Shown here one piece after another: positions 543 to 42,796 of a stretch of 64,000 nt of DNA (position 1 is the stretch's first letter; each line of letters starts with the position of its first letter). This stretch comes from a bacterium (GTDB lineage: Bacteria; UBA10199; 2-02-FULL-50-16; JAJFLM01). The position numbers and the translations under genes are program-made. The stretch covers positions 448,001 through 512,000 of the forward strand of contig CBDCFN010000016.1 in NCBI GenBank assembly GCA_965216315.1. The letters are read 5' to 3'. The notes under the pieces were generated by a model. That model was not told the origin of the DNA, searched no databases, and was given only the letters and a program-made list of their open reading frames with translations.

Positions 543-567
543 ATCGTATTTCATTACAAAAAGTTGT
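543..567 (-). promoter_or_regulatory. RCAAC-N16-CGA promoter-like motif, copy 1
   Basis: Minus strand ACAAC-TTTTTGTAATGAAATA-CGAT, upstream of the ATG at 479. Confidence 0.7.
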
Positions 568-664
568 GCAAAACTTCATGAGCTGCTGCGATAGGGCTAT
601 AACTTACTGTTATTATTTCTTTTATAGGAGTACTTTTTTATGGCTGGTAGGCGGTTAGGGCAGG

Positions 665-1888
665 CTAATTGCAAATAGGACTCAATGCTGACATATCATT
701 GGTTTCTTGTCGATTGAGAGCCTCGCGGGCGCAGGTTTCATTGACGATTTCCTGAGCAGTCAGGGAACGATTATAAACCGTGACATCATCAATAATTCCC
801 TCAAAATTATAGAGAGATGCCAGCGGCATCCCAGCTATATCGATAGAACCTCCAATTCGTGCCGGAGCCGGATTGAGAGTTGTGCCCGCCAACGCATCGG
901 ATACAAACGTTACGGCGTCTTCAACTCCATCGACAAAAAGTTTAGCGCCAGCGGCCATCGTGGACCCATTATAAGTGACGGCCACATGATGGGCAGTATT
1001 CGGGGCATTAAAGAGAGTCGTCGAATCGATGCGGAGCCGATCACCGGTGCTGCTGTCACTAACTAAGAAGAAGTTGAGGGTGTCAGTAGAGCTAAAGCCA
1101 AACCAATAACCCCGTTGAAGGGTTGGGTCGGTATAATCAGCCCGTGCAAAGATAGTATGATCGGCGCCCACGGACTGGCGGTTTGCCCAAGCCGAGATGG
1201 TAAAAGAGTTTGTGGCGTCAAAATTCAAAATATCACCGAGTTCAACGAAGTCATTAGTGCCATCGAAGCTGAGGGCGCCTCCGACAAGGCCCGGGACCCA
1301 GGCGGTTGAGGTATCAAAATTAGTCAGGATTCCATTATTTCCGGCACTGCTGGAATCTGTGGCTGTGCTGCCGGTGCCATCGTCCATGCGCCACCAGCCA
1401 AGAAGTGAATCGTCAGTAGAATAAAAACGAATGGCACTATATTCGGAGACTGTATCGTCATTGTATCTTGTGCGAACCTTCCAGTGATAAGTTGTATTTG
1501 GAGTAAGTAGGGGAGTGACATCATAAGCTGTTGCGACCAATTTGCTTCCAGGGCAAGCAGCGCCTTGAATGGAGGTAAGTCCTTCCGTCGTTTGGCATAT
1601 TTCGAAGCTGCTAATGATCTTGTCCGCCGGAACATTAACTGCTTGCCAAGATTGGAAGGAACGCGTCGGAGGAAGCAGCGAACCGTCGGGTGGGAATGTG
1701 AGCGATGGAATACCACTCCCAACGGCGATGCCACCGACTCCTCCTGAGCCGGTCATTCCACCGAGCTGCCCGTCAGAATACTCATCTAGGCCGAGAATCT
1801 CACTACAGCTGGTTGCGCTTAGCCCTAAGCCGAATACGAGGAGTGCTCGACCAGCTGTTGAATTAATACTTGTACCAATTAGAGTCAT
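665..1888 (-). CDS. LamG-like jellyroll domain lipoprotein (FN3-like module type B + LamG)
   Basis: Signal peptide with lipobox-like LSATS-C28; 'YHWKVRTRY' FN3-like strand; LamG motifs 'LLGWWRMDDGTG', 'ALSFDGTND', 'HHVAVTY', 'FEGIIDDVTVYNRSL'. Confidence 0.85.
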   Translation of the reverse strand: MTLIGTSINSTAGRALLVFGLGLSATSCSEILGLDEYSDGQLGGMTGSGGVGGIAVGSGIPSLTFPPDGSLLPPTRSFQSWQAVNVPADKIISSFEICQTTEGLTSIQGAACPGSKLVATAYDVTPLLTPNTTYHWKVRTRYNDDTVSEYSAIRFYSTDDSLLGWWRMDDGTGSTATDSSSAGNNGILTNFDTSTAWVPGLVGGALSFDGTNDFVELGDILNFDATNSFTISAWANRQSVGADHTIFARADYTDPTLQRGYWFGFSSTDTLNFFLVSDSSTGDRLRIDSTTLFNAPNTAHHVAVTYNGSTMAAGAKLFVDGVEDAVTFVSDALAGTTLNPAPARIGGSIDIAGMPLASLYNFEGIIDDVTVYNRSLTAQEIVNETCAREALNRQETNDMSALSPICN

Positions 1889-1890
1889 AC

Positions 1891-3165
1891 CTAATTACAA
1901 ATTGAAGGCAAGGCAGACATGTCATTAGTTTCCTGTCGATTAACGGCCTCGCGCGCACAGGTCTCATTGACGATCTCTTGAGCAGTCAGGGCACGGTTGT
2001 AAACCGTGACATCATCTATGATTCCATCGAAATTATAGAGGGAGGCTGAAGGCATGCCAGTGACATCAACCGATCCACCAATCCGCGCCGGAGCGGGATT
2101 GAGAGTCGTGCCCGCCAACGCATCGGATACAACCGTAACCGTCTCTTCAGTCCCATCCACGAAAAGTTTGGCTCCACTAGCCATCGTGGAGCCGTCATAG
2201 GTCACGGCCACATGATGGGGAGTATTCGGGGTATTAAAGAGAGTCGTCGAATCGATGCGGAGTCGGTTGCCCGTACTGCTGTCACTAACCAAGAAGAGGT
2301 CGAGGGTGTCAGTAGAACTAAAGCCAAACCAATAACCTCGTTGCAGGACGGGATCCGTATAATCAGCCCGTGCAAAGATGGTGTGGTCGGAGCCCGCAGC
2401 CTGGCGGTTGGTCCACGCGGAAATAGTAAAAGGGCTCGAAGCATCAAAGTTCAAGATGTCACCGAGCTCAACGAAGTCGTCAGTGCCATCGAAGGTCAAG
2501 GCCCCGCTGACCAAGCCCGGGACCCAGGCGGTTGAGGTATCAAAATTAGTCAGGGTGCCGTTATTGCCCGCACTGCTGGAATCACTGGCTGTGCTGCCGG
2601 AACCTTCATTGAAGCGCCACCAGCCGAGTAAGGAATTGTCGGTGGAGAAGGAGTGCACGGGGCTGTAGTCCGTACAGTCGGTTCCGCCCGCATCGTAACA
2701 GGTCTGGACCTTCCAAAAATAACTTTGCGATGGGGTTAAAGGATCGATAATACGAAAAAGGTTGGTATCGATCAATTCATTCGGACAGTTCGCGGCGTTT
2801 GAGATAGCGGCTATATTAGCCGCATGGCAGGAACGATACCAGGTGGAATTGCCCTCAGGAACGACACCATCTTGCCAGGATATAAACGCACGCGCAGGCG
2901 GCAATGATTGTTTGTCAGCCGGTTGTGATTGAAGTGGGATGTGATCGGCAGGATAACTGTTGTCGATGGTTCCGCCACTGCCGCCCATTCCGGCTGTTCC
3001 GCCCGTCGTTATCATGCCACCGGTTCCACCGGTAGAGCTCCCTGGAGGATCGCCAATTTTGTCCCGGTCGACTTCAGTTAGGAATGAGCAGCTTGCGACG
3101 CCCATACTGAATCCCAGCGCGAGTGCAAGTCGAGAGCTGGTTGCAGATGCCATGAATCCGTTCAT
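1891..3165 (-). CDS. LamG-like jellyroll domain lipoprotein (module type A + LamG)
   Basis: Strong RBS AAGGAG; GVAS-C26; Gly/Thr linker; same LamG motifs. Confidence 0.85.
   Translation of the reverse strand: MNGFMASATSSRLALALGFSMGVASCSFLTEVDRDKIGDPPGSSTGGTGGMITTGGTAGMGGSGGTIDNSYPADHIPLQSQPADKQSLPPARAFISWQDGVVPEGNSTWYRSCHAANIAAISNAANCPNELIDTNLFRIIDPLTPSQSYFWKVQTCYDAGGTDCTDYSPVHSFSTDNSLLGWWRFNEGSGSTASDSSSAGNNGTLTNFDTSTAWVPGLVSGALTFDGTDDFVELGDILNFDASSPFTISAWTNRQAAGSDHTIFARADYTDPVLQRGYWFGFSSTDTLDLFLVSDSSTGNRLRIDSTTLFNTPNTPHHVAVTYDGSTMASGAKLFVDGTEETVTVVSDALAGTTLNPAPARIGGSVDVTGMPSASLYNFDGIIDDVTVYNRALTAQEIVNETCAREAVNRQETNDMSALPSICN
1946..2748. repeat. Near-identical ~800-bp direct repeat, copy 1 (copy 2 at 3312..4114)
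   Basis: Offset 1366 bp; about 4 substitutions visible by eye; encoded protein segments identical. Confidence 0.9.
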
Positions 3166-3194
3166 ATAATATATCTCCTTCTCCAGTGTGTGGT

Positions 3195-3219
3195 GTCGAC
3201 TAGAGGCAAGAATTGTTGT
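3195..3219 (-). promoter_or_regulatory. RCAAC-N16-CGA promoter-like motif, copy 2
   Basis: Minus strand ACAAC-AATTCTTGCCTCTAGT-CGAC, upstream of the ATG at 3165. Confidence 0.65.
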
Positions 3220-3271
3220 GGAACCGAAATAAAATTCGTTTACTGGAGTAAACAGCTAAAAGGTGCTTATG

Positions 3272-5032
3272 CTATTGACAGGGACTTGGGAGCGGATCCG
3301 AACTCGCAAGAGCCTCGCGCGCACAGGTCTCATTGACGATCTCTTGAGCAGTCAGGGCACGGTTGTAAACCGTGACATCATCTATGATTCCATCGAAATT
3401 ATAGAGGGAGGCTGAAGGCATGCCAGTGACATCAACCGATCCACCAATCCGCGCTGGGGCGGGATTGAGAGTCGTGCCCGCCAACGCATCGGATACAACC
3501 GTAACCGTCTCTTCAGTCCCATCCACAAAAAGTTTAGCTCCACTAGCCATCGTGGAGCCGTCATAGGTCACGGCCACATGATGGGGAGTATTCGGGGTAT
3601 TAAAGAGAGTCGTCGAATCGATGCGGAGTCGGTTGCCCGTACTGCTGTCACTAACCAAGAAGAGGTCGAGGGTGTCAGTAGAACTAAAGCCAAACCAATA
3701 ACCTCGTTGCAGGACGGGATCCGTATAATCAGCCCGTGCAAAGATGGTGTGGTCGGAGCCCGCAGCCTGGCGGTTGGTCCACGCGGAAATAGTAAAAGGG
3801 CTCGAAGCATCAAAGTTCAAGATGTCACCGAGCTCAACGAAGTCGTCAGTGCCATCGAAGGTCAAGGCCCCGCTGACCAAGCCCGGGACCCAGGCGGTTG
3901 AGGTATCAAAATTAGTCAGGGTGCCGTTATTGCCCGCACTGCTGGAATCACTGGCTGTGCTGCCGGAACCTTCATTGAAGCGCCACCAGCCGAGTAAGGA
4001 ATTGTCGGTGGAGAAGGAGTGCACGGGGCTGTAGTCCGTACAGTCGGTTCCGCCCGCATCGTAACAGGTCTGGACCTTCCAAAAATAACTTTGCGATGGG
4101 GTTAAAGGATCGATGACACGGAAGCGATTGGTGTCGATGGTTTCATTGGGGCACTCGTCGGCATCATCGATATCGGCCAGCCCGACCGCGGTGTAACAGG
4201 AACGATACCAGGTGGAGTTGCCTCCTGGAATGACGCCGTCCTGCCAGGACGTAAAGGCGCGCGCGGGTGGCAATGTCTGTCCATCGGTGGGGAGCGATTG
4301 AGTTGGGATGTGGTCGGACGGATAAACAGTTCCAGCATCAGTCATGTCGGCCACATCGTCCGGTCCGTCATCTGTATCAGTATCAAGGACAGCGTCGGGA
4401 GAGGTATCAATTGTTCCATCAGAACTGTCTGTATCAGCCAGGCTGTCACTCGTATTTATGTCAGAAATATCCGCAGATGTATCGGTGATTACATCTGCAT
4501 CGTTTTCATTTATGTCAGGTATGTCAAATTCTACATCTACATCTTGAGGGACGTCTATTAAAGCTATGTCTGTGTCGGCATCTTCGACGCGAGAATCTTG
4601 GATATCTCTTTCCACATCATTAATCGTGTCATCCTCTGCATCTGGAATGAAAAGGTCAGGTAGGGGGGCGTCACCGCCAATCCCGCTATCGAGGAGATCA
4701 GGGTCCAAAGATTCTCCGTCAATTTGGTCAAACCGGCTCAAGTCACCATCAAATTGGCAGCCTGCACTGAAGATTAGGAGTCCTGCGGTAATGCCAAGTA
4801 AACGCTTTGCGAGACTATAGGACCTCTTCGGAGTTTCGACAGTTGATGCAGGGAATCCCGTTCTTTCAGTGAACTGAAAAGTCTGATTACTCTCTGTCGT
4901 AATTGGAATAAAACGAGTCTCATTTGCCTGTTGATGAGTGGGTAGTGTTGCTAAGGTACCAGTTTGTAATGAATTGCTGAGTGCAAGTGACGTTAATGTA
5001 GATGATGTGTTAGATAAGGATATGAAACTCAT
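3272..5032 (-). CDS. LamG-like lipoprotein with long N-terminal leader and Asp-rich linker (module A + LamG)
   Basis: Start moved to the ATG at 5032 (GGAG RBS; the promoter motif lies inside the longer ORF call); FSAG-C92; long Asp/Thr-rich linker; LamG motifs. Confidence 0.85.
   Translation of the reverse strand: MSFISLSNTSSTLTSLALSNSLQTGTLATLPTHQQANETRFIPITTESNQTFQFTERTGFPASTVETPKRSYSLAKRLLGITAGLLIFSAGCQFDGDLSRFDQIDGESLDPDLLDSGIGGDAPLPDLFIPDAEDDTINDVERDIQDSRVEDADTDIALIDVPQDVDVEFDIPDINENDADVITDTSADISDINTSDSLADTDSSDGTIDTSPDAVLDTDTDDGPDDVADMTDAGTVYPSDHIPTQSLPTDGQTLPPARAFTSWQDGVIPGGNSTWYRSCYTAVGLADIDDADECPNETIDTNRFRVIDPLTPSQSYFWKVQTCYDAGGTDCTDYSPVHSFSTDNSLLGWWRFNEGSGSTASDSSSAGNNGTLTNFDTSTAWVPGLVSGALTFDGTDDFVELGDILNFDASSPFTISAWTNRQAAGSDHTIFARADYTDPVLQRGYWFGFSSTDTLDLFLVSDSSTGNRLRIDSTTLFNTPNTPHHVAVTYDGSTMASGAKLFVDGTEETVTVVSDALAGTTLNPAPARIGGSVDVTGMPSASLYNFDGIIDDVTVYNRALTAQEIVNETCAREALASSDPLPSPCQ
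3312..4114. repeat. Near-identical ~800-bp direct repeat, copy 2
   Basis: Matches 1946..2748. Confidence 0.9.
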
Positions 5033-5083
5033 TTTTTTCTCCGCAATACGTATATAGTAATACCGTTCATATTGCGCGAAAGA

Positions 5084-5108
5084 ATCGTATTGTTGGATGG
5101 AAAGTTGC
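5084..5108 (-). promoter_or_regulatory. RCAAC-N16-CGA promoter-like motif, copy 3
   Basis: Minus strand GCAAC-TTTCCATCCAACAATA-CGAT, upstream of the ATG at 5032. Confidence 0.7.
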
Positions 5109-5197
5109 GGAAAAACAAGGTTAGGTGTCAAATAAACTTAACACTTGAATACAAAAGATAGCGATATCTTTAAAGAGAGTGCTACATCACTCAAATA

Positions 5198-6643
5198 TCA
5201 ATTGCATATTGACGGTAAGGGATCAGAGCCAGCGAGAGCTTCGCGCGCGCAAGTCTCATTGACGATTTCCCGAGCAGTGAGGGCTCGATTATAGATCACG
5301 AGATCATCAAGAACTCCATCAAAGCTATAGAGAGAAGCTAAGGGCATTCCACTTGGATCAATAGAGCCACCAATCCGTGCCGAAGCGGAATTGAGGGTCG
5401 TGCCTGTTAATGCATCGGTGACTACAGTGGAGGTTTCTTCAGTTCCGTCGACAAAGAGCCTTGCCCCTGCAGCCATAGTTGAGCCGTCATAGGTGACGGC
5501 AACATGATGAGGAGCGCTGGGGGTATCGAAGACAGTTGTTGAATCAATACGAATCCGGTTTCCGGTACTGCTATCGCTGACGAAGAAGAGATCAAGCGTA
5601 TCAGAAGAGCTGAATCCAAACCAATAACCACGTTGTAGGGCTGGATCCGTATAATCCGCCCTGGCAAAAATAGTATGATCAGACCCAACGGATTGACGGT
5701 TAGTCCAGGCGGAGATTGTATAGGGGGTCGTTGAATCGAAATTTAAAGTATCACCGAGCTCTACAAAGTCATTCGTACCATCAAAGTTTAAGGCCCCACC
5801 AATAAAACCCGGAACCCAGGCGGAAGCGATATCAAAATTAGTCAGGGTGCCGTTATTGTCAGCACCGCTGGAATCACTAGCCGTCATTCCGGAACCTTCA
5901 TTGAAGGTATAGCGTGCAAGCAAGGAGCTATCTGTGTTGACCATGCGCAGGGCACTGCCCATGGAGCGCGAACCATCATCGTATAAAGCTCTTACCTTGA
6001 CATGATAGGTAGAGCTTGGATTTGTAATATTAATTGCACCGAATGGAGACGTTACAGTGTTGCTCTGTGGGCATTCAGTAGAATCATCGATAGATGTAGT
6101 CCCAGTTGTTGTATAGCAAATCTCGTATCCTGCAATAGATCTGCCCGGAGGGAGTGTAGCCGCTGGATCCCAGCGGATAAAAATACGGTTGTTGGGCAAA
6201 GAGATATCTGTTGCAGGAATCGTAATCGTCGAATTGTCGTCAATGACTGGACCACTGTCACCGGCATCATTGGTGCTTCCATCTATATCGGCATCCGGGC
6301 TTGCATCGGGAATGGGTCCTCCATCGGGGCCCCCGTCACCTCCACCATCGATAGTGACACCACGGCCTCTTCCATCTAATAAGCAACCACTGCCAAATAA
6401 ACTGAGCACGCCTCCGATAATGAAAGTCGGTAACACTAAAGCGGCATGGCGAAGTCTGCGCTGGTTTGTTTCGTTGAGTAAGCGCGTCAGTGTCGAATTT
6501 TGCGTCACGGATTCGAGTAGAGGTTGAGCCAAATGGTTCGTGTTCGTTGTACTCGGAAGGCTTGGGGGCAGCTGCTGTAAAGAACTCGCCAGGACGGGCC
6601 GAGCCGACAGTAGGAATGGTGTCATCGGATTGATTAGACGCAT
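5198..6643 (-). CDS. LamG-like lipoprotein with long N-terminal leader (module B + LamG)
   Basis: GGAG RBS; FGSG-C87; 'YHVKVRALY'; LamG motifs; most diverged LamG copy. Confidence 0.85.
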   Translation of the reverse strand: MRLINPMTPFLLSARPVLASSLQQLPPSLPSTTNTNHLAQPLLESVTQNSTLTRLLNETNQRRLRHAALVLPTFIIGGVLSLFGSGCLLDGRGRGVTIDGGGDGGPDGGPIPDASPDADIDGSTNDAGDSGPVIDDNSTITIPATDISLPNNRIFIRWDPAATLPPGRSIAGYEICYTTTGTTSIDDSTECPQSNTVTSPFGAINITNPSSTYHVKVRALYDDGSRSMGSALRMVNTDSSLLARYTFNEGSGMTASDSSGADNNGTLTNFDIASAWVPGFIGGALNFDGTNDFVELGDTLNFDSTTPYTISAWTNRQSVGSDHTIFARADYTDPALQRGYWFGFSSSDTLDLFFVSDSSTGNRIRIDSTTVFDTPSAPHHVAVTYDGSTMAAGARLFVDGTEETSTVVTDALTGTTLNSASARIGGSIDPSGMPLASLYSFDGVLDDLVIYNRALTAREIVNETCAREALAGSDPLPSICN

Positions 6644-6666
6644 GGTTTCTCCAAATTACTCAAGCA

Positions 6667-8124
6667 TCAGTTGCATATAGATGGTAGAGAGCCGGATCCA
6701 GCAAGAGCCTCACGCGCACAAGTCTCATTAGAGATTTCCTGAACAGTCAGGGCCCGATTATAAACAGCGATATCATCAATGATCCCCTCAAAATTATAGA
6801 GAGATGCCAGTGGCATCCCCGCTGTATCGATAGAACCTCCAATCCGTGCCGGGGCGGGATTGAGAGTCGTGCCCGCCAACGCATCGGATACAACCGTAAC
6901 CGTCTCTTCAGTTCCATCCACAAAAAGTTTAGCTCCACTAGCCATCGTGGAGCCGTCATAGGTCACGGCCACATGATGGGGAGTACTAGGTGTGTTAAAG
7001 ACAGTTGTAGAATCGATGCGGAGTCGGTTACCCGTACTGCTGTCACTCACCAAAAAGAGGTTGAGGGTGTCAGTAGAGCTAAAGCCAAACCAATAACCTC
7101 GTTGCAGGACGGGATCCGTATAATCGGCCCGTGCAAAGATAGTATGGTCAGCGCCGACCGACTGGCGGTTGGTCCAAGCCGAGATGGTAAAGGGGGTGGC
7201 TGAGTCAAAATTTAAGATATCACCGAGTTCCACAAAGTCATTGGCACCGTCAAAACTTAGGCCTCCGCCGACAAGGCCTGGATTCCAGGCGGTTGAGGTA
7301 TCAAAATTAGTCAGGGTGCCGTTATTGCCCGCACTGCTGGAATCACTGGCTGTGCTGCCGGAACCTTCATTGAAGCGCCACCAACCGAGCAGAGAATTAT
7401 CAGTCGAGAAGGAACGCACGGGGCTGTAGTCCGTACAGTCGGTTCCGCCCGCATCGTAACAGGTCTGGACCTTCCAGAAATGACTCTGAGCCGGGCTTAA
7501 GGGGTCAATCACGCGGAAACGATTGGTGTCGATGGTCTCATTGGGGCACTCGGTAGTGTCATCGACATCGGTCATGGCCGTGGCATGACAGGAGCGATAC
7601 CAGGTAGAGGCGCCACCTGGGATGACGCCGTCTTGCCATGACATGAAGGCGCGCGTGGGCGCGAGGAGTTGTCCGTCAGCCGGCAACGATTGCGTCGGGA
7701 TGTGATCGGATGGATAACCGGTACCACCGTCTTCGGCATCGCCGGCGTCACCCGGACCGCCATCCATATCGGCATCCGGACTTGCATCGAGGATGGGGCC
7801 TCCATCGGGGCCGCCATCACCACCATCAGGTCGCGGCGGAGCGGTGCCGCTTCGGTCTAAGAAGCAGCCACTACCGAACAGGGCGAGCAGGCCCCCAATC
7901 ACAAAAGCGGGTATGGCTAAGGCAGAGCGGCGGAGCCGCTGCCGGCTTGGCTCACTGAATAAACGCGTCAGCCCAGAATCCGGAGAAACGGGCTCTAGAG
8001 ATATTTGGGTTGGCGCCGAAATGTCAGCTTGAGTCTGGAGGCCAGTTGGCGCTGGTGATACAGAACTCGCTAAGATGGGCTGAGCCGATAGCAGAAAAGA
8101 CGTTGTCTGACTTATTAGGTGCAT
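6667..8124 (-). CDS. LamG-like lipoprotein with long N-terminal leader (module A + LamG)
   Basis: GGAG RBS; FGSG-C87; LamG motifs. Confidence 0.85.
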   Translation of the reverse strand: MHLISQTTSFLLSAQPILASSVSPAPTGLQTQADISAPTQISLEPVSPDSGLTRLFSEPSRQRLRRSALAIPAFVIGGLLALFGSGCFLDRSGTAPPRPDGGDGGPDGGPILDASPDADMDGGPGDAGDAEDGGTGYPSDHIPTQSLPADGQLLAPTRAFMSWQDGVIPGGASTWYRSCHATAMTDVDDTTECPNETIDTNRFRVIDPLSPAQSHFWKVQTCYDAGGTDCTDYSPVRSFSTDNSLLGWWRFNEGSGSTASDSSSAGNNGTLTNFDTSTAWNPGLVGGGLSFDGANDFVELGDILNFDSATPFTISAWTNRQSVGADHTIFARADYTDPVLQRGYWFGFSSTDTLNLFLVSDSSTGNRLRIDSTTVFNTPSTPHHVAVTYDGSTMASGAKLFVDGTEETVTVVSDALAGTTLNPAPARIGGSIDTAGMPLASLYNFEGIIDDIAVYNRALTVQEISNETCAREALAGSGSLPSICN

Positions 8125-8174: not shown

Positions 8175-8199
8175 ATCGCTCATCCCGGTAAAAAGTTGT
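8175..8199 (-). promoter_or_regulatory. RCAAC-N16-CGA promoter-like motif, copy 4
   Basis: Minus strand ACAAC-TTTTTACCGGGATGAG-CGAT, upstream of the ATG at 8124; IHF-like TTTCAATGAGTTA at 8219..8231. Confidence 0.7.
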
Positions 8200-13098: not shown

Positions 13099-13125
13099 GC
13101 AACTTTTTGAGGTGGGTCGCGATAA
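13099..13125 (+). promoter_or_regulatory. RCAAC-N16-CGA promoter-like motif, copy 5
   Basis: GCAAC-TTTTTGAGGTGGGTCG-CGATAA, upstream of 13168. Confidence 0.75.
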
Positions 13126-13167: not shown

Positions 13168-13509
13168 GTGATTTTTCGTGCAATTAAAAATATATTCTCG
13201 CTCTTGCCCCATCTCACGCAGCAGGGGGCCATTGAGAAAGAGAAAAAGAAGGAAAAGCCGCGTCTTCTGGATGTGATGCAGGCGCGCTTTCTCTCTGAAG
13301 AGGCCCGGCGGCGCAATGTTGAGTTGTCGGCACTGATCAAGAACAACGGTAACATTGTTGCCGATGAAGCCTTGCAAGAGGGAGTGGAGAAGAAAGTGAA
13401 CGCCTTGATGGCGCCCCACTATCAGCATCCCGAGATCATGGATGAAGTGACGGAAAAATTGACCGACGTTGCGCGTCACGATCCGTATTATCGCCGCTGG
13501 TTCAGCTGA
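13168..13509 (+). CDS. Hypothetical protein (113 aa, helical)
   Basis: GTG start with AAAGGGA RBS; fills the gap; preceded by the promoter motif. Confidence 0.65.
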   Translation: MIFRAIKNIFSLLPHLTQQGAIEKEKKKEKPRLLDVMQARFLSEEARRRNVELSALIKNNGNIVADEALQEGVEKKVNALMAPHYQHPEIMDEVTEKLTDVARHDPYYRRWFS

Positions 13510-19550: not shown

Positions 19551-19577
19551 GCAACAAAATGAGGGGAGTGCCGAAAC
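19551..19577 (+). promoter_or_regulatory. RCAAC-N16-CGA promoter-like motif, copy 6
   Basis: GCAAC-AAAATGAGGGGAGTGC-CGAAAC, about 10 nt before the ATG at 19587. Confidence 0.65.
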
Positions 19578-19586: not shown

Positions 19587-22500
19587 ATGACTCTTTTTCT
19601 CGCCACCAGCATGCAGCCCATGATGGCACTCGCAGCCGGAGCTCCCGTGACCACCAGTGGGCTGAGCCAGCACCTCAATGGGGCCTTGCGCACCTATGAG
19701 CGGACCCAACGACTCAATGATCTCATCCAAGCTGTCGAGGGCGGTTTGGCTCAGGCGCAAGAACTGACCATCAGGGATCGTTGGACCGCGCCGCAGCTCG
19801 CTCATTTAGCCCATGCCCTTTCCGGGCTGACGCGCCAGCATCAGAGTTTTTTGCTCGCTGATTCACAAGCGTCGGAGCCCCAGATGTCATTGTTGTTTAA
19901 AGAAACGGAAAATGTGATCGAAGCGCTGACCTCTACGGATGACTCACTGATTGTTAGTTCAGATGATCCGGATGATCTGGTTAATTGGTCCCAAGTTGCG
20001 GATGACTATGAACAGTTGCTTGATTCAGGTATTTTTCAGCGAGGTCATTTTCCTCTCCTGCATGGTCTTGGCCAGATGGGACTCTCATTAGGGGCTCGGA
20101 TTGCGCTGAAGTTAGATGGTGCGCAATGGTTTGGCCGTCTTACGGACACTCAACTCGAACATTCAGCCGAAGTTTATTTGTATGGACGTTCGCGGGGTCG
20201 CGATCCGGAGCCGACGAGTTTACTCAATAGTCATCATCGGGTGCCGGAAAAACAATTGCAGGCCGAGCATGGTTGGATCCATCAGGCTGTCAGAGGCATC
20301 GGCCGGAGCGAGCGGCGCGAACAGCAACGCGTCTCTCCATTTCAAGTGACCGGTATTCCATCGAAAGAGTTTGTCAAAGAACTCTATAAGGATGATTACA
20401 GTTTTATGAAGCAGATGCCCGAAGGGGCTATTTTGGTCAGTCCTATCAAGTCTTATATCGCTCCGGACGTTTATTTTAAGATACTCAAAGATTATGCAGC
20501 GGCGCGCAAACAGCGTAATGATGAATCAGAGCCGATTCGCGTCCAAGGGGGCGCGTCGATGGAGGATATCTACGACATGGTTCGGTATATTACGAACCGG
20601 AATGACATCAAGACCGTCCATATTGGTGGTGAATATTTTGCAAAAAATCTTTACATGTATTCAGAAGAGCCGCCACGCCACACAGAACTAGTGTTTGCAT
20701 CGAAAGATATTGAAGCGGCCGAACAGGCGGCACGCTATTTCCGTATTCCGGGACAATTAGAAGTCAGCATCACCGATGACGTTAGTACCGTGATGCTCGG
20801 CGGGGTCATGAAGAATATTGCGGCTTATGCGATGGGCTTTACGGATTTAGAGGAGATGGAACGACTGTATAAGGCCGGCGATGAGACTAACTGTCAGTTG
20901 TATATTGAGACGGGGGACGGAGAAAATGGCTATGTCGATGATCCCCGTAAGTTATCAGGACGTCGTCGCCGTTGGTGGAAGATCCTGGTTGATATTGCTG
21001 AAGGGGTCAAAGGTGAACCGGTCGATCCGCCGCGGGAAGTGTTAAAGGATTTTTGCGGCTGTACTATTTTCAACCGGGATCTGGTTGCGGATCTTTTCCG
21101 TGCCGTTCGCATCAGCTATGATCGGGCGCAGCGCCGTCAGAGCGAGAGTGCTTGGCAGGAATTTCGTGAGGCCGTGCAACAATTTCGAGATCGCGTAGGG
21201 GATTTTGCAAACAGCCGAAATAGACGTGGTGGGCTCCTTCACGCCATGGCGATTTTTGTCAAAGAAGAACTCAAGCGGCCGGAAGAAGCAGCGCTCTTGT
21301 TCTGGGAAAAGACGGTCGAAGGCTATCAGGCCATGCGCGGCTTGCGGGCGACTTTGAGTGATATAGATCCGTTTCTAGCGTCGAGACTGGATATCGGGTT
21401 TAAGCGTTTCTACACAGAGCACGGTGTGCCGCTTCATCCTGAATTAGATCCGCTTGAACCCAAAGCGATTCGCGATGCCGTGATGCAGGGCATAGAGAAT
21501 ACGAATTTTGTTTCGAGTCAGCCGATGTTGGTATCAGCGCGACGGGTCAAAGAGATTTTACAAATACCTTGGTTGACACGAACGGCCTATAATTTTCTCA
21601 AGAACAAGATCAGGGATCTGCAAGATCACATTGCGACTCCCGATCGAGAGCGTGGTCGTGTCGAGCGTGATTTTCGTTTGTTTGATCGGGCGTTGCAATT
21701 ATTCGATGCAGGTATGCTGGTTCGGGCGGGAGATCATATCGCAACAGAACCTGTGCACCCTTATCGGCACATTACGCGTTTTGAAGGTCGCGTGGATCAG
21801 GGGAAAGGTGACGGGATTCACCACTATCATATCGGAATTGAAGGTGATCAGGGGCTTGATCGTGTGCGTGATGTCTCTCTGCTTTTGTCACATCACCAAG
21901 CTCGTTCGGAGCCAACTGAAATTCATATTGAGATCGAAATTTTTGATGCGACGCGCGAGATGCCGCGCGTCTTATGGGCGATGCAAAACGTGGCCAACCG
22001 ATTCCGGGGAAATCAGGATGCGCCGATTAATGTTGATTTTGTCTTCCATACACCAACGGGAAGTCCGCGTTTGAAGGTAACTTCTGAGTTGGCGCAAGAG
22101 ACTCCGGATCATTGGCAGTTTCGTTATGAGCGTGGCATGGATTATCTCATTAGTGCGACCGGTCTCAACTACGATGAATTGACGAGCCATTTCAAACATC
22201 ACGTTAAGATGATTAATTCGATCGTTGGTAAGGATAGCTGGGTTGGTTTAGGCGCGACCAACGTGGGTCAGTATTCAACCGCCTTCAGGGATGCTTTGCA
22301 GGTAGCCGGTGAAAAGGCTTTCTTTGGAGTTTATAGTGATCCCGAACAGGAATACCCTGATGAAGTGGTCGTGGCCCATTTTGATTCCGATGGGGACCTG
22401 CGTTTATATGATAGCCGCATCCAAGAGCTCATGGCGCGTGATTCGGAACGACCTCAAGCCAATGGCAATCAAGAGGAGCGCGATTGGGACGCTTATTTCC

Positions 22501-22787
22501 GCGGACTTCCGGTCGAGCAATATAAAGAGGCCTATGAACGGTTGACGGGTAAGTCATATGGTGAGCTGCTTCCGCTCAATATTTATTTTCCATTGGAAGA
22601 GGTCCTGGTTGGCAATCGCGATGCACGACTTTCACCTCCACGGCTTTTTGTATTTCTGCAAAATTTGAAGGGCGCAAAAGCGAGAGAATTTGCGGAGTGG
22701 ATGGAGCCGCGGCATTTTAGAGAGCCCAATGATCAACTCTATTTGGATATTCGAGATAAAGTTTTAAGTATGCTCCGTTCCATGTAA
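19587..22787 (+). CDS. 1066-aa protein with internal divergent GpsA-like (NAD(P)-dependent glycerol-3-phosphate dehydrogenase) domain
   Basis: In GpsA order: 'HGLGQMGLSLG' (GxGxxG), 'VYLYGR', 'HIGGEYFAK', 'TDDVSTVMLGGVMKNIAAYAMG', 'SRNRRGG', 'KTVEGY'. Confidence 0.7.
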   Translation: MTLFLATSMQPMMALAAGAPVTTSGLSQHLNGALRTYERTQRLNDLIQAVEGGLAQAQELTIRDRWTAPQLAHLAHALSGLTRQHQSFLLADSQASEPQMSLLFKETENVIEALTSTDDSLIVSSDDPDDLVNWSQVADDYEQLLDSGIFQRGHFPLLHGLGQMGLSLGARIALKLDGAQWFGRLTDTQLEHSAEVYLYGRSRGRDPEPTSLLNSHHRVPEKQLQAEHGWIHQAVRGIGRSERREQQRVSPFQVTGIPSKEFVKELYKDDYSFMKQMPEGAILVSPIKSYIAPDVYFKILKDYAAARKQRNDESEPIRVQGGASMEDIYDMVRYITNRNDIKTVHIGGEYFAKNLYMYSEEPPRHTELVFASKDIEAAEQAARYFRIPGQLEVSITDDVSTVMLGGVMKNIAAYAMGFTDLEEMERLYKAGDETNCQLYIETGDGENGYVDDPRKLSGRRRRWWKILVDIAEGVKGEPVDPPREVLKDFCGCTIFNRDLVADLFRAVRISYDRAQRRQSESAWQEFREAVQQFRDRVGDFANSRNRRGGLLHAMAIFVKEELKRPEEAALLFWEKTVEGYQAMRGLRATLSDIDPFLASRLDIGFKRFYTEHGVPLHPELDPLEPKAIRDAVMQGIENTNFVSSQPMLVSARRVKEILQIPWLTRTAYNFLKNKIRDLQDHIATPDRERGRVERDFRLFDRALQLFDAGMLVRAGDHIATEPVHPYRHITRFEGRVDQGKGDGIHHYHIGIEGDQGLDRVRDVSLLLSHHQARSEPTEIHIEIEIFDATREMPRVLWAMQNVANRFRGNQDAPINVDFVFHTPTGSPRLKVTSELAQETPDHWQFRYERGMDYLISATGLNYDELTSHFKHHVKMINSIVGKDSWVGLGATNVGQYSTAFRDALQVAGEKAFFGVYSDPEQEYPDEVVVAHFDSDGDLRLYDSRIQELMARDSERPQANGNQEERDWDAYFRGLPVEQYKEAYERLTGKSYGELLPLNIYFPLEEVLVGNRDARLSPPRLFVFLQNLKGAKAREFAEWMEPRHFREPNDQLYLDIRDKVLSMLRSM

Positions 22788-32390: not shown

Positions 32391-32393
32391 GGT

Positions 32394-36247: not shown

Positions 36248-36439
36248 CGGGTCCCTCTGGGCGGGTCCTGCCCTCCCGTGAGAGTTTGTGACTCCCTCGC
36301 CTCGCTGTGCTGGCTCGGTCTCGCTCGCAAAACTCTCACTCGGGTCACCCGCCACACTTGAACGCCGGGTGGTTCGAGCTTCCTTCGGACCGTCTGCATT
36401 TAGAGACGCAGCCGAAGGTTTGCGAAGAACCAGGACCCG
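36248..36439. other. 192-nt multi-stem structured intergenic element (ncRNA or repeat candidate)
   Basis: Closing stem CGGGTCC/GGACCCG; GGCGGGT/ACCCGCC; GTGAGAGTTT/AAACTCTCAC; CTTGAAC/GTTCGAG; CCTTCGG/CCGAAGG. Confidence 0.55.
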
Positions 36440-36461
36440 GCGCAATTGAGCATGTCGATGT

Positions 36462-37307: not shown

Positions 37308-37389
37308 GGCGGGCCTGGGGCTATCATGCCGTACTGAATATGTCTAGTGGGGTTGATTTCAGGCGATTCATGTGATTGCTTGCTCCTCC

Positions 37390-38037: not shown

Positions 38038-38043
38038 GGAGAG

Positions 38044-38556
38044 ATGGCCAAGATCATTAAAAAGATATTTAATGGTCGCATTGTTGATCTTCGGATTGAA
38101 CAGCATCGTTTGCCGAATGGCGTGACGCATGATTTCGAAATCGTACGTCATTTGCCGGCGGCAGCTGTCTTGCCTGTCATGGGAGATCAAATCCTTTTGA
38201 TCAAACAGTATCGTCCGGCGATTGGTAAGCGTGTCTGGGAAATTCCTGCAGGCTTAGTTGAGGAGAGTGAAAGTCCTCTCAGCTGTGTGAAGCGGGAATT
38301 GAGAGAAGAGACCGGTTACCGGGGTGAGAATTTTCGTAAGCTAGGGATTATTTATTCAGCCTGCGGCTTTACGGATGAAAAGATTATCATTTATCAGTGC
38401 GATATAGGCGAGAAGGGCGATAATTCTCTTGAGCTGACGGAAGATATAACCGTTCACCTTCTTGTTGTGGATCAAGTTCGTGAGATGTTAGAGCAGGGTG
38501 AGATCAAGGATTCAAAGACGGTGATTGCCCTGCAGCATTACTTTTTGTCTCCTTGA
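38044..38556 (+). CDS. NUDIX hydrolase (ADP-ribose pyrophosphatase-like)
   Basis: 'QYRP', Nudix box 'EIPAGLVEESESPLSCVKRELREETGY', 'IKDSKT'. Confidence 0.92.
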   Translation: MAKIIKKIFNGRIVDLRIEQHRLPNGVTHDFEIVRHLPAAAVLPVMGDQILLIKQYRPAIGKRVWEIPAGLVEESESPLSCVKRELREETGYRGENFRKLGIIYSACGFTDEKIIIYQCDIGEKGDNSLELTEDITVHLLVVDQVREMLEQGEIKDSKTVIALQHYFLSP

Positions 38557-38591
38557 TTTTTATTCACGAGTATTAGAAACTCCCGCGCAAG

Positions 38592-40271
38592 ATGGCAAAA
38601 CAACTTAATAAATATAGTGCACGGATCACGCAGGACCGCGATCAACCCGCCTCGCAGGCAATGCTTTATGGCATTGGCCTTACCGAGGAAGATCTCGCCA
38701 AGCCTTTTGTGGGGGTTGCGAGTACCGGCTATGACGGGAATACCTGTAACATGCATCTCAATGGGTTGGCTAAGTTGGCCAAGGAAAGCTGCTTAGAAGC
38801 AGGGATGGTCGGACTCATCTTTCACACGATTGGGGTCAGTGACGGTATTTCAATGGGTACCGAGGGGATGAATTATTCACTGCAGTCCCGCGAGATTATA
38901 GCCGACTCCATTGAAACCGTGATGAACGCCCATTGGTATGATGCGAATATTTCCGTTGTCGGATGTGATAAAAACATGCCGGGCTCCGTGATTGCGATGG
39001 GGCGTCTCAACCGTCCAAGCATTATGATTTATGGCGGGACAATTAGTCCGGGAAAATTCCACGACAAGGTGCTTGATATCGTGTCGGCCTTTGAAGGTTT
39101 GGGTGAATTCGTGGGCGGTAAAATCGATGAACCCGAGCTTAAAGGCATTCTTAAAAATGCCTGTCCTGGTGCCGGGGCCTGCGGGGGGATGTACACAGCG
39201 AATACGATGGCATCGGCGATTGAAACACTCGGGATGAGTTTGCCGTATAGTTCTTCATATCCTGCAACGAGCGAAGAAAAGCTTGCAGAGTGTCGCCAGG
39301 TGGGGGCTGCTATTAGGAATTTACTTGAAAAGGACATTAAGCCCGCCGATATCATGACGCGCAAAGCCTTCGAAAATGCAATCACAATCGTGATGGCATT
39401 AGGTGGCTCAACAAACGCCGTATTACATCTAATTGCGATGGCGAAGTCCGTCGATGTCCCGCTGACGATTGATGATTTCCAGGTGATCAGCGATAGAACG
39501 CCGTATATCGCTGATCTGAAACCGAGTGGCAAGTATGTGATGGAGGATCTCTGCCATGTCGGTGGAGTTCCAGCCGTTCAAAAATTGCTCCTTAAAGAAG
39601 GTTTGTTAGCGGGGGATTGCCTCACGGTGACGGGAAAGACCTTAGCTGAGAACTTAGAGTCACTGCCGGGTCTCAAGGAAGGGCAGCCCATTATCTTTCC
39701 GCTATCGCAGCCAATCAAGCCGAGCGGCCATCTGCAGATTTTGTATGGCAATATTGCCGAGCAGGGTGCGGTTGCTAAAATTACGGGTAAAGAGGGGACT
39801 GCTTTTACGGGCACAGCCCGTGTATTTGACAGCGAAGAAGAAGCGATCGAGGCGCTTGAGGCCAAGCAGATCAAGCCCGGCGACGTACTTGTCATTCGTT
39901 ATGAAGGGCCGAAAGGGGGGCCGGGCATGAGTGAAATGCTTAAAGTGACGGCCGTCGTGATGGGGCTTGGGCTTGGCAAAGAAGTTGCGCTAATAACGGA
40001 CGGTCGTTTTTCGGGTGGAACCCATGGTTTTGTTGTCGGCCACATAACGCCGGAGGCACAAGTGGGCGGTGTCATGGCAATTATTGAAGACGGAGATGAA
40101 ATTACGATTGATGCGGAGCAGAGAGTGTTGAACCTCAATGTTTCGGCTGAGATTATTCAGGCCCGTTTTAATGATTGGAAGGCCCCACCGCTTAAGGTCA
40201 AGCGCGGCACACTTCACAAGTTCTTTAAAACTGTTGCTTCGGCGTCGGAAGGATGCGTGACGGATGCGTGA
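38592..40271 (+). CDS. ilvD: Dihydroxy-acid dehydratase
   Basis: 'CNMHL', 'VSDGISMG', 'GCDKNMPG', '[12 protein letters not shown]', 'TDGRFSGG'. Confidence 0.97.
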
Positions 40272-40279
40272 CGATTGAG

Positions 40280-40693
40280 CTATTTGACTAAGAGTACTCC
40301 CATCGTGATTAAAAAGACGCCGATCACCCGACTCAGACTGAGTGGCTCCCCAAGAAACAAAACTGAATAGAATAATGTAAAGACGGGTGCGACGGCAACG
40401 AGCGGAACTACACGGGAAGCCAAGTCTCCTTGCAATACAGAAAAATATAACCATAGAAAAACCGTCGCCATCAGTGCCGGGATGACAATCCATAGATAGG
40501 TGCGGCCACTGAAATCGCCAAAGGAACGATATTGCCCGGTGAAAAAAGAGATCAGCAAGAGAAGAATGCAGATGAGACAGCTACGGATTGTGAAAACGGC
40601 TAGGGGGGACGCTTCTTTTAAGCTAAGCTTTTCAAAGATGGCTCCTAAGCCCATCATCGCGGCCACGATCAGTGGCAGGCCAATCTCTTTCAT
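40280..40693 (-). CDS. Single-repeat EamA/DMT-family membrane protein
   Basis: About 5 TM segments; 'ASRVVPL', 'LFLGEPLS'. Confidence 0.8.
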   Translation of the reverse strand: MKEIGLPLIVAAMMGLGAIFEKLSLKEASPLAVFTIRSCLICILLLLISFFTGQYRSFGDFSGRTYLWIVIPALMATVFLWLYFSVLQGDLASRVVPLVAVAPVFTLFYSVLFLGEPLSLSRVIGVFLITMGVLLVK

Positions 40694-40785
40694 GGCATAG
40701 ACTTTTCCGGCAACACCTTGAAAAGTCAAGGGAGTATAGGGACTTGGGCGTTGACTTTGAATCCGGGCTTGTGTACTTATGGACT

Positions 40786-40834
40786 CTCACGTCAGGCGTG
40801 AGTGCTTTTTGGGTTTCACGTCAGGCGTGAAACC
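40786..40834 (+). promoter_or_regulatory. Twin palindromes TCACG-TCAGG-CGTGA in the ferredoxin leader
   Basis: Identical 15-mers at 40787..40801 and 40816..40830. Confidence 0.6.
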
Positions 40835-40852
40835 ATAATCGAGGAGGATGAA

Positions 40853-41152
40853 ATGGCCTACGTTATTACCGAAAAATGCTTGGGAGAAAGATATGCAACA
40901 TGCGTTGATGTCTGTCCGGTCAACTGCATTTATCCTGGTGATTACAAAGACGAAGTCTTCATGGTTATCGATCCGGAAATTTGTATCGATTGCGGCGCCT
41001 GTCTCCCGGAATGTCCGATTGAGGCCATTGTCGCCTCAGAAGATGAGTCGCCGGATTGGGCCAAGATCAATGCGGAGTTGACGCCTGCTTACAAGGACAA
41101 TCCTCCCGTGGAGCCACGCCCGGCCAATGATCCGCCGCGGAAGCAGCATTAA
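40853..41152 (+). CDS. Ferredoxin (7Fe/FdxA-type)
   Basis: GAGGAGG RBS; 'MAYVITEKC...CVDVCPVNCI', 'CIDCGACLPECP'. Confidence 0.93.
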   Translation: MAYVITEKCLGERYATCVDVCPVNCIYPGDYKDEVFMVIDPEICIDCGACLPECPIEAIVASEDESPDWAKINAELTPAYKDNPPVEPRPANDPPRKQH

Positions 41153-41176
41153 ATCTCGAATGAAATTGTGTAAATA

Positions 41177-42631
41177 TTATTTCGGGGGGGCTTTCCCTCC
41201 TGATTCTATCTCGACCAATTGACTCATAAAGTGCGTATGCGCACCGGCAATAATCCTGGGGATAGATTTTGGATCAAGCACGCCAATGCCTTTTACGGGA
41301 AGAACAAGCTCCCAAACTTCTACTTGTGGATCATCACGTAGGATTTGCAGGTGATCTTCAATGCGGGCGCGACGCATCAAATCCGCGACATGACTTGACC
41401 ACTTAAGAATATCGACAAACGGCAGGCGCCGAATCAGTTTGTTGCGAAATATCTTCCAGCCCGACACTTGTGGGAATAAATTGACAGCGAGAATAAAGAG
41501 TTTTTTTTGTTTCGTCAGTTGTTTCTTTTGATCGATCTTCCACTTGCGGTAAACACTGACAAGCGGGACCTCTTCGGCAGTGCCGCCGTCCACATAGATG
41601 CTGGAAGTCTTTCCTTTTTTGATGACGCGGGGGACATAAAGAATGGGGATTGAGCTTGAAGCGAGGACGGCATCGATGGCACTGACGCTGTGAATGAGTT
41701 CACCATAATCTTGTTTGCGTACTTTCAGCGGGGTAAGGACTTCATTGCGTTTGCGATGCAAGTTGTAAGCAATGCAGTAGAGAGGCTTCTCGACTTTTCT
41801 ATCTTTGGCTAAACGGGTGACCGCATTTTGAATGACCTTTTGGATGTCCATAAAGCCTTTGAGTGCAAACGGGTTGGAAGGGAGCAACCATTCTACGGCT
41901 AAATTTTTCAGGACCTGTGCCTTTGATGGGGAAAGGATCATGTCATAACGCTCGTTGTAGAGATCATAGCCGTCGTGCTCCATGGCGTCCGGGCTGACCC
42001 CGAGGGCAAACATCAACGCGGCGATGGAGCCGCCGCTGCATCCCCACAGTTCATCGATATGTTCACGACCTTCTAGTAGATCGATTATTTTGAGGACCGC
42101 CGCATGAGCAAAGAGACGCAGGCCGCCGCCGCCGAGCGAGAGGACGAAACGCGTCGAAGGATCGGACATGCGCCGCCGGAGTTTTTTGAGTCGGTCGCGC
42201 GCCTGCGGGACCTTGGGGGGGCGCTGGGCAAGTCGCCAGCGATAATTGCGGCGGCCACCGGGTCGGTCTAGGATGAAGCTCTCCTTCAATTCTTCGTCGG
42301 TGCGCCCCAGATAGACCGGTGTGGGGATGCGTCCGGCCTGTTCCTCCGCCATGCAACGCGTCATAATCTCGTTTTGGACGTCCGGAGGGGGCAAACTGTG
42401 GAGGATTGCCTCAAAAGGAAAAATAATGCGGGTCGGTAGCGTGTCTTGGCTAAATACTCTAATTATATGAAATGATTCTGGAAACAGCTCCTGGAGTTGG
42501 CTGTGGCTGCGCTCGGAGAGAAACAGGCTGCCGTCGGCGGCGGGGTGAAAACGCCAATGATCTCGATAGCGCTTCTCGAGCGGTCTATCCGAGTTCAAAC
42601 TGACCTGGTAGATTGTCCCCAACCAACTCAA
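41177..42631 (-). CDS. Patatin-like phospholipase with N-terminal extension
   Basis: 'LSLGGGGLR', nucleophile 'GCSGG', 'ASSSIP', 'VDGG'; start uncertain. Confidence 0.85.
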   Translation of the reverse strand: MSWLGTIYQVSLNSDRPLEKRYRDHWRFHPAADGSLFLSERSHSQLQELFPESFHIIRVFSQDTLPTRIIFPFEAILHSLPPPDVQNEIMTRCMAEEQAGRIPTPVYLGRTDEELKESFILDRPGGRRNYRWRLAQRPPKVPQARDRLKKLRRRMSDPSTRFVLSLGGGGLRLFAHAAVLKIIDLLEGREHIDELWGCSGGSIAALMFALGVSPDAMEHDGYDLYNERYDMILSPSKAQVLKNLAVEWLLPSNPFALKGFMDIQKVIQNAVTRLAKDRKVEKPLYCIAYNLHRKRNEVLTPLKVRKQDYGELIHSVSAIDAVLASSSIPILYVPRVIKKGKTSSIYVDGGTAEEVPLVSVYRKWKIDQKKQLTKQKKLFILAVNLFPQVSGWKIFRNKLIRRLPFVDILKWSSHVADLMRRARIEDHLQILRDDPQVEVWELVLPVKGIGVLDPKSIPRIIAGAHTHFMSQLVEIESGGKAPPK

Positions 42632-42723
42632 CTTATCAAAAAAAACCGCAAGGACAAAGGCTTGAAGCGGGTCTGAAAATTCGTTATTTTTTTAGAGAAA
42701 GGCAAAAAATAAATTTTTAATGA

Positions 42724-42736
42724 TATCAATGAGTTA
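42724..42736 (+). promoter_or_regulatory. IHF-binding consensus site
   Basis: TATCAATGAGTTA matches WATCAANNNNTTR, with an upstream A/T tract. Confidence 0.55.
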
Positions 42737-42768
42737 CGATGATTTGCGAAGATTTGCTAAAATTGTTG

Positions 42769-42796
42769 GCAACCTGCAAATCGAAGGGGCCGATAA
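42769..42796 (+). promoter_or_regulatory. RCAAC-N17-CGA promoter-like motif, copy 7
   Basis: GCAAC...GCCGATAA (perfect sigma28 -10 box), upstream of 42867. Confidence 0.7.

Follow-up and report, generated by a model that had tools for sequence, protein, structure and literature searches.

A large candidate regulon of a diverged FliA-like sigma factor encoded in a non-flagellar type III secretion cluster of a UBA10199 bacterium

We analyzed a bipartite motif, RCAAC-N16-CGA, found upstream of scattered genes in a 64-kb stretch of DNA (the window; positions 448,001 to 512,000 of contig CBDCFN010000016.1) from a bacterium of the phylum UBA10199, together with the genome to which the stretch belongs (G000; 2.96 Mb, 16 contigs, 98% complete). 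Judged by its placement, spacing, and strand bias, the motif is a real -35/-10 promoter, and it is very probably read by a FliA-like sigma factor whose gene lies in a cluster of type III secretion system (T3SS) genes in the same genome. The explanation that we consider probable as a whole is that a diverged sigma28 of a secretin-less T3SS acts on two types of promoters, is itself gated, and controls cargo that is exported. The original prediction, made from the window alone, had proposed an accessory regulon of seven units. The prediction is supported, but its scale was set too small, as it comprises about 300 promoters and extends through the phylum, and its two spacer classes had gone unseen.

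Results

The promoter motif in the window and in the genome

All seven predicted sites were recovered in the window (Table 1), each of them intergenic and on the coding strand, with gene starts 12-73 nt downstream. The spacer between CAAC and CGA is 16 nt in six of the seven sites and 17 nt in the remaining one. Within the window, the bare pattern exceeds chance only slightly, with 11 matches for spacer 16 and 4-7 matches for each of the spacers 13-15 and 17-20. A matrix trained on the genome scored the seven sites at 15.6-23.7 and five other spacer-16 matches of the window, all in coding sequence, at 3.9-8.0.

Genome-wide, RCAAC-N16-CGA has 220 intergenic matches, 194 of which lie within 200 nt upstream of a gene on the same strand. 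Spacers 17 and 18 gave 46 and 37 intergenic matches (34 and 26 upstream), and the other spacers (12-15, 19, and 20) gave 7-21 (2-10 upstream). The consensus reads cRCAACTTTT-N-gcCGATAAg, and the spacer sequence is unconserved in G000. With respect to frequency and strand bias, on which the original prediction had staked the motif, the matrix found a coding-strand site in 160 of the 818 tandem gaps, compared with 9 reversed sites and 4-7 in shuffled sequences; the 106 convergent gaps held 3 + 3 sites. Because this first matrix had been trained on the same gaps, cross-validation was performed: when a matrix was trained on one half of the genome, the 477 held-out gaps yielded 61 sites on the coding strand and 4 on the reverse strand, and the reciprocal test gave 46 versus 0 in 341. 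The pattern TAAAG-N-CGAT showed no spacer peak in G000 beyond codon periodicity.

Site-bearing genes number 297 (15% of coding bases) or, with probable operon partners, 464 (22%); they are spread evenly over the genome and have an ordinary GC content at third codon positions. Gene prediction relied on a home-made model, which called 2,580 genes and misplaced the start in two of seven window genes, so that all gene counts for G000 are approximate.

Two further candidate elements were rejected. The original prediction placed IHF-like sites upstream of three promoter copies; only one of them is an exact match (Table 1), and IHF boxes precede 17 of 297 site genes versus 24 of 580 in the comparison set (p 0.31), which does not support IHF as an element of promoter design. 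A putative activator site, TAAC-N5-GTTA, was found at 2 of 295 promoters and had no peak genome-wide. Separately, sigma54-type boxes were observed upstream of 72 of 984 genes that lack the motif, versus 14 on the reverse strand, which suggests a second large regulon, of sigma54 type, in G000. Genes for DUF4423/TIGR02147 regulators stand under the RCAAC promoter at G000:C16:97715, 105078, 284396, and 2280780.

Start sites and spacer classes

An in-frame ATG is located 9-13 nt after CGA in 87 of the 297 site genes, in 25 of them at exactly 10 nt, and other ATGs at these distances number 8. PMC12784957 describes GCCGATAA as covering positions -15 to -8 in the sigma28 complex of P. aeruginosa, which would place an ATG at 10 nt on the +1 position. 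By this alignment, the transcripts of these 87 genes look leaderless.

When sites were assigned without a spacer prior, 207 genes fell into the spacer-16 class, 36 into spacer 17, and 22 into spacer 18. Orphans and additional copies of enzymes are found behind spacer-16 sites, and T3SS parts and lipoproteins behind spacer-18 sites, whose sequence is GCAACTC and whose GC content is higher. Sixteen of the 22 spacer-18 sites are followed by proteins flagged as having a classical signal peptide (one of them probably miscalled), two by genes of the T3SS cluster, and none by the uncharged leaders described below. The spacer-18 class showed no conserved upstream box. Across 46 T3SS loci of relatives, the matrix identified 94 sites with spacer 18 versus 24 with spacer 16 and 5-18 with other spacers, and the positions of the sites are conserved. 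A spacer-18 site also stands before a pair of small genes at G000:C16:1468133-1468974, the first of which starts like C16:368233, a translocator-like gene of the T3SS cluster.

The FliA-like sigma factor

The genome encodes five sigma70-family proteins and one sigma54. The only FliA-like sigma among them (C16:350583-351410) contains PF04542 and PF04545 and has FliA/WhiG as its best families and WhiG and FliA as its best PDB matches; with 133 bits it remains under the TIGR02479 cut-off of 189.6. The predicted alteration of region 4 in a FliA-family sigma is borne out by alignment to the solved WhiG and FliA structures, in which region 2.4 is retained and, in region 4.2, GLSKSWTSRLH replaces GV(S/T)ESRVSQ(L/I)H. 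The helix SKSW(T/V)SRLH recurs in 47 of 48 loci, including that of G000. Residues S224 and Q228 of P. aeruginosa sigma28 are described as reading -35 bases (PMC12784957), and R220 of the E. coli protein as touching the -35 backbone (bioRxiv 2020.01.02.893370). In our residue mapping, S224 would be kept in the G000 sigma, Q228 would be changed to R, and R220 would correspond to W.

Another site-bearing gene, G000:C16:91474-94470, encodes a helicase with a sigma70 region 4 behind a spacer-16 promoter; this region 4 is 54% identical to that of the G000 RpoD.

The T3SS cluster and a candidate sigma partner

Around the sigma gene are homologues of SctJ, L, N, O, Q, R, S, and T; SctV is encoded close by and SctU at another location. 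In 25 of 26 long loci, SctL and SctN adjoin the sigma gene. SctV scores 806 bits with the HrcV model, over its cut-off, and 698 bits with the FlhA model, under its cut-off; SctN is over the TIGR02546 cut-off and also over that of a FliI model. By its export apparatus, ATPase, and inner ring, the system is non-flagellar, and no flagellin was found in the genome. A non-flagellar programme tied to export had been anticipated by the original prediction. The one strong secretin of G000 is GspD-like. With regard to a translocon, three LcrH/SycD-like proteins, all under the cut-off, adjoin unassigned proteins of 600 aa. A profile of 25 orthologues of C16:347385 retrieved T3SS chains, mostly MxiH and PrgI, at the C-terminus in 8 of 16 PDB matches, and the protein belongs to an Atlas cluster with PF09392 in 11% of its members; a PDB search with the single sequence gave no matches. 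Based on these similarities, C16:347385 is a probable candidate for the needle subunit SctF.

In most loci read, a fast-evolving protein of ~100-125 aa with a disordered-looking N-terminus is encoded directly upstream of the sigma gene, with the G000 counterpart at C16:350010. For the pair from a related locus (L022), the modelled sigma-partner complex scored 0.78, the best control being 0.00; 116 of 157 solved pairs and 2 of 215 mismatched pairs attained this mark, as rough counts obtained with our own alignments. Contact agreement between the model runs was at least 66% and the confidence (pLDDT) of the partner at least 63. The modelled interface is centred on sigma residues 116-160, and the -35 helix is not among the residues named in it. 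Among solved structures, neither FlgM nor RsiG matched the partner in sequence. On the strength of the model, we think it somewhat likelier than its opposite that the small neighbouring protein binds and gates the sigma factor.

The modelled patch on sigma is centred on a near-invariant L-A-S (residues 149-156 of L022:10001-10789; G000:C16:350583-351410), a triplet with which the cargo leaders in the family of G000 also end. The match may be a coincidence within the conserved region 3 or may reflect a shared, chaperone-type recognition motif.

Products of the regulon

Enrichment of orphans among motif-bearing genes was evident in the densest regions of G000, from which proteins with a site or leader were scanned: 170 of 234 have no Pfam match at 1e-7, compared with 10 of 50 control proteins drawn from these regions (three membrane/Sec-like leader proteins, one 40-aa open reading frame, nine oversize proteins, and 20 of the 70 drawn controls are outside these counts). 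The recognizable products include phosphofructokinase, glutamate dehydrogenase, cysteine desulfurase, RtcB, a weak RelA/SpoT match, and malic enzyme; a single-chain acetyl-CoA carboxylase with biotin ligase, a fatty acid synthase-like protein, acyl-CoA synthetase, acyltransferase, and diacylglycerol kinase; and kinases, histidine kinases, cyclases, the helicase mentioned above, and a lytic transglycosylase. Some products exceed 2,500 aa. Many of the enzymes that were checked have a site-free counterpart elsewhere in the genome. The carboxylase (G000:C16:1632121-1639854) is a 2,577-aa protein with ACC_central and a biotin ligase domain that carries both promoter and leader; the genome also has AccC-like and BirA-like genes as separate units. 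A run of about ten paralogue-like genes without Pfam matches (G000:C16:2161715-2185583), most of them behind near-perfect sites (scores 23-26), has Cys-containing N-termini in place of the leader.

An uncharged leader ending in (L/V/A)LA(S/A), defined by a rule blind to the promoter, was found in 63 of 293 site genes; among the genes downstream of these the count was 12 of 166, and among the others 22 of 2,049. Only 1 of the 63 leaders has K or R within the first ten residues, and the median peak hydrophobicity is 1.58 versus 2.68 for the signal peptides behind spacer-18 sites, so the leaders have neither the basic start nor the hydrophobic core of signal peptides. In other families of the phylum, N-termini encoded after spacer-16 sites are rich in P, T, and S and poor in K and E, with signal peptides in 3 of 41 versus 76 of 388 proteins. 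N-termini of this composition without signal peptides are a feature of T3SS substrates. From the N-termini, the chances appear about even that the spacer-16 products are T3SS substrates injected into another cell. Such a cell would more likely be bacterial than eukaryotic, because no ankyrin, F-box, U-box, or leucine-rich repeat domains were found among the 234 proteins scanned.

Distribution in UBA10199 and in a second phylum

The motif, in the form RCAACTT-N14-CGAT, occurs in 8-97 copies per genome in 93 genomes of the phylum, compared with 0-9 for a wrong spacer, and is enriched in all 93. A single copy of the sigma factor is present in 91 of the 93 genomes and in all 63 that are of good quality. 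Flagellin exceeds its cut-off in 11 of the 93 genomes. All five of these 11 flagellated relatives that were tested have a second, canonical FliA, with the helix read in four of the five. None of 13 regions upstream of their flagellins contains the CAAC box. Canonical TAAAG promoters were clear at one of these 13 regions only, so that a canonical FliA regulon in the relatives is no more than putative. When site genes of three related genomes (G023, G024, and G025) had a homologue in G000, it was itself a site gene in 17 of 20 cases, against a background of 297 of 2,580.

The second phylum carrying this sigma type is probably Myxococcota. A sigma match was found in 23 of 61 genomes sampled around one of them (G093), and among 20 loci read, 14 have the helix with W and six a canonical one. 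Matches to RCAAC-N16-CGATA outnumbered those to an N13 control in 13 of 14 genomes of the W type (289 versus 138); for 12 comparison genomes, the six canonical ones plus six hand-picked ones without a sigma match, this was the case in 5 (93 versus 117). A SctV/FlhA-family match is present in 13 of the 14 W-type genomes (nine full-length at 46-48% identity and four partial) and missing from one; among the 12 others, the full-length matches are at 37-39%, and three genomes also have partial matches of 48-55%. In a phylogenetic tree, the W-type sigmas of both phyla are separated from canonical FliA (support 99/96, with a long-branch warning), and the same grouping was obtained with the helix removed and without an outgroup. 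In one genome (G145), the GCAAC-N16-CCGATA sites, about 45 in number, have spacers that are shared in part; several of the sites lie near contig ends, and they may represent a promoter-bearing repeat.

Proposed mechanism and alternative explanations

The reading that we favour can be set out in four steps. In all likelihood, region 2.4 of the sigma factor would read GCCGATAA and the rebuilt 4.2 helix would read RCAAC rather than TAAAG, which would keep this sigma separate from canonical FliA in relatives having both. Two promoter types would then divide the genes, spacer 18 serving T3SS parts and lipoproteins and spacer 16 serving about 200 orphans and extra enzymes, many of the latter on leaderless transcripts; the order would be machine, then cargo. 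The small protein encoded upstream would, with somewhat better than even prospects, gate the sigma as an anti-sigma factor or cofactor. For the last step, delivery of spacer-16 proteins by the T3SS into another, more likely bacterial, cell, we see arguments of equal weight on both sides. In its furthest form, the proposal holds that several hundred proteins, among them duplicate enzymes of lipid and carbon metabolism, signalling, and transcription, are injected throughout the phylum into a bacterial host or prey by a secretin-less injectisome, with a re-specified sigma28, a new partner, and scheduling by spacer length; this we put forward as a tentative idea that is probably too broad.

Several observations weigh against this reading. 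The original prediction had noticed no sites before housekeeping genes, which holds for the most part (0 of 45 tRNA genes have a site), but sites are assigned to the ordinary genes panD, ribBA, bioB, D-Ala ligase, and a DEAD helicase. The LLAS leader was found in 15 of 26 proteins of G025, 1 of 9 of G024, 0 of 10 of G023, and 3 of 41 of ten genomes from other families, and was rejected as a phylum-wide signal, being confined to the family of G000. The spacer-18 class is weak when the bare pattern is used in the T3SS loci of relatives (78 matches at spacer 18, 77 at 17, and 38-62 elsewhere), and a strict spacer-18 set is large only in G000 (16) and G064 (14), with 0-4 in the other 39 genomes. 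Among Myxococcota, a site precedes sctV in two of nine full-length loci (G121 and G139), and no spacer peak was found across 14 sctV loci. As for the machine, no SctC exceeded the TIGR02516 cut-off in 46 genomes, although a divergent SctC could score lower; the similarity to needle proteins is low (best E 0.0025, fold model pLDDT 55.7, no Pfam match); and the Myxo-type T3SS has been argued not to secrete outside the cell, as stated in PMC3459982. The complex was folded for the L022 pair, to which the G000 counterpart is linked by position and 17% identity only. Finally, related genomes are not independent samples, and the p-values therefore overstate the case.

Among the alternatives, the most serious is a life-stage programme with the same sigma and promoter, comparable to the attack phase of Bdellovibrio or to WhiG of Streptomyces, in which most products stay inside the cell, the leaders act as internal tags, and the enzymes build a storage or resting form. 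Bdellovibrio offers a precedent, since its FliA is reported to account for 92 of 140 attack-phase promoters, many of them non-flagellar (PMC3627812), and the lipid enzymes and malic enzyme of the set, the size of its largest products, and the lack of a dedicated secretin all agree with such a role. Against it stand the position of the sigma gene beside SctL and SctN, the conserved sites on T3SS genes, and the P/T/S-rich, K/E-poor N-termini with few signal peptides in other families, and we judge the life-stage programme unlikely, if not greatly so. A more improbable possibility takes the leaders for Sec signal peptides of an unusual kind with cleavage after L-L-A, the cargo leaving by Sec and type II secretion and the link to the T3SS being regulatory only. 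Small residues do flank the leader motif, as around signal-peptidase sites, and G000 has a type II secretion cluster with GspD; however, the leaders are uncharged and insufficiently hydrophobic, many cargo enzymes require ATP, NAD(P), or CoA, and the gsp genes have no sites.

Reading of the motif by another factor was also considered, given that G000 has an RpoH-like sigma, two extracytoplasmic function (ECF) sigmas, and RpoD, the last of which could act with an activator. The -10 box and the spacing are those of sigma28, the motif follows the SKSW-type sigma into the second phylum, and sigma54-like and sigma70-like boxes precede 4 and 8 of 249 site genes versus 72 and 79 of 984 others, all of which makes this possibility very remote. 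The notion that the sites are chance matches or a dispersed repeat draws on the weakness of the bare pattern within the window and on the shared spacer sequences of some G145 sites. It is hardly credible in view of the unconserved spacers in G000, a strand bias that holds under cross-validation, the near-absence of sites from convergent gaps, and the ATG peak at +1.

Genes downstream of the window sites

The coordinates of the window features are collected in Table 1. The 113-aa orphan shows no similarity to the sigma partner protein. The 1066-aa protein, originally described as a GpsA hybrid, retains a weak match of 55-80 residues (E about 3e-4) but has no Pfam match and no useful PDB match; the transcript from its promoter would be near-leaderless. 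In three LamG-cluster proteins (3-479, 5198-6643, and 6667-8124, minus strand), the uncharged leader is followed 40-60 residues on by a complete-looking lipoprotein signal, a combination that under a strict rule occurs in 3 of 97 leader proteins versus 9 of 1,589 others. Two-step targeting of these LamG proteins is possible from this arrangement. Elsewhere in the window (49273-53290, plus strand), two tandem pairs, each of a small exported protein and a zinc-protease-like protein, lack this promoter; the first ends in a MYXO-CTERM-like tail.

Table 1. Promoter sites and associated genes in the 64-kb window; scores are those of the genome-trained matrix, and distances are from the CGA box to the start codon.
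Feature	Position	Strand	Details
LamG-cluster gene, 5' part	3..479	-	continues past the window end; uncharged S/T/L leader; lipoprotein-like signal internal near residue 85
Spacer-16 promoter, ACAAC-N16-CGAT	543..567	-	score 17.5; ATG at 479, 64 nt downstream; precedes LamG-family gene
LamG (PF13385) lipoprotein	665..1888	-	probable operon with 1891..3165, given the 3-nt gap
LamG lipoprotein	1891..3165	-	domain match
Spacer-16 promoter	3195..3219	-	score 15.6; ATG 30 nt downstream
LamG protein	3272..5032	-	uncharged leader and long acidic linker
Spacer-16 promoter	5084..5108	-	score 16.0; ATG 52 nt downstream
LamG protein	5198..6643	-	V-L-A-S-S leader; internal basic-hydrophobic-Cys stretch (read from sequence); probable operon with 6667..8124
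LamG protein	6667..8124	-	I-L-A-S-S leader; lipoprotein-like signal internal near residue 86
Spacer-16 promoter	8175..8199	-	score 20.7; ATG 51 nt downstream
Spacer-16 promoter, near-consensus	13099..13125	+	score 23.7; start 45 nt after CGA
113-aa orphan, no family match	13168..13509	+	homologue in G023 (other family; L196, 32% identity) under the same promoter
Spacer-16 promoter	19551..19577	+	ATG 12 nt after CGA
1066-aa protein, uncharged leader	19587..22787	+	weak GpsA-like segment, residues 340-425
Exact IHF consensus	42724..42736	+	excluded from promoter design: no genome-wide enrichment
Spacer-17 promoter, perfect GCCGATAA	42769..42796	+	score 19.6; ATG 73 nt downstream
582-aa low-complexity orphan, no family match	42867..44615	+	

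Discussion

The G000 sigma shares with canonical sigma28/FliA of E. coli and P. aeruginosa a homologous protein, the -10 box GCCGATAA, and the promoter spacing, but differs in the -35 box (RCAAC in place of TAAAG) and in the helix (KSW(T/V)SR in place of ESRVSQ). Canonical FliA drives flagellin and is held by FlgM, whereas G000 has no flagellin and the neighbour of its sigma has no FlgM match. Like FlgM with FliA and RsiG with WhiG, this neighbour is a small protein with a disordered-looking N-terminus modelled in a complex with the sigma; in sequence, it matches neither FlgM nor RsiG. The FliA regulon of Bdellovibrio is comparable in that a sigma28 is described as a global regulator of many non-flagellar, uncharacterized genes, although it is reported to use a canonical TTAAG-N16-CCGATA box and to control flagella (PMC3627812). 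The G000 system is distinguished from it by the new box, the location of the sigma gene in an injectisome-type cluster, and the two spacer classes. In Pseudomonas syringae, HrpL, an ECF sigma encoded with the T3SS, recognizes the hrp box, a promoter found before the genes of the machine as well as before dispersed substrate genes; its regulon numbers in the tens of genes. The G000 motif likewise stands before machine genes and scattered accessory genes, but here with a group-3 sigma, about 300 promoters, and export as the presumed fate of the products.

The closest counterpart of the secretion system is the T3SS* of Myxococcus xanthus (mxan_2434-2464; PMC10433427, PMC12075869, PMC3459982), with which the G000 system has in common an FHA/SctD-like protein, several LcrH-like chaperones, the components SctJ, L, N, Q, R, S, T, U, and V, and the lack of a secretin. 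Its effectors are stated to be unknown in PMC10433427. T3SS* is described as needleless, whereas the G000 cluster has a probable SctF. The M. xanthus cluster presumably also contains a FliA-like gene; in plasmids, the FliA matches were all distant. Among the papers listed in searches of the full-text, mostly non-subscription literature, none was seen to treat this sigma type, its promoter, or a T3SS regulon of UBA10199, although supplementary gene tables may list the sigma.

The system would represent a natural case in which the -35 specificity of a sigma factor changed as flagellar export machinery became an injectisome. It offers a first handle on the lifestyle of UBA10199, with about 15% of coding DNA (22% with operon partners) under one T3SS-linked promoter, and the motif would serve as a sequence tag for candidate substrates of secretin-less T3SSs. 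Since culturable myxobacteria carry this sigma type, Sandaracinus amylolyticus being one of them, the idea is open to bench testing and, if true, the sigma-promoter pair may flag effectors of the myxobacterial T3SS*.

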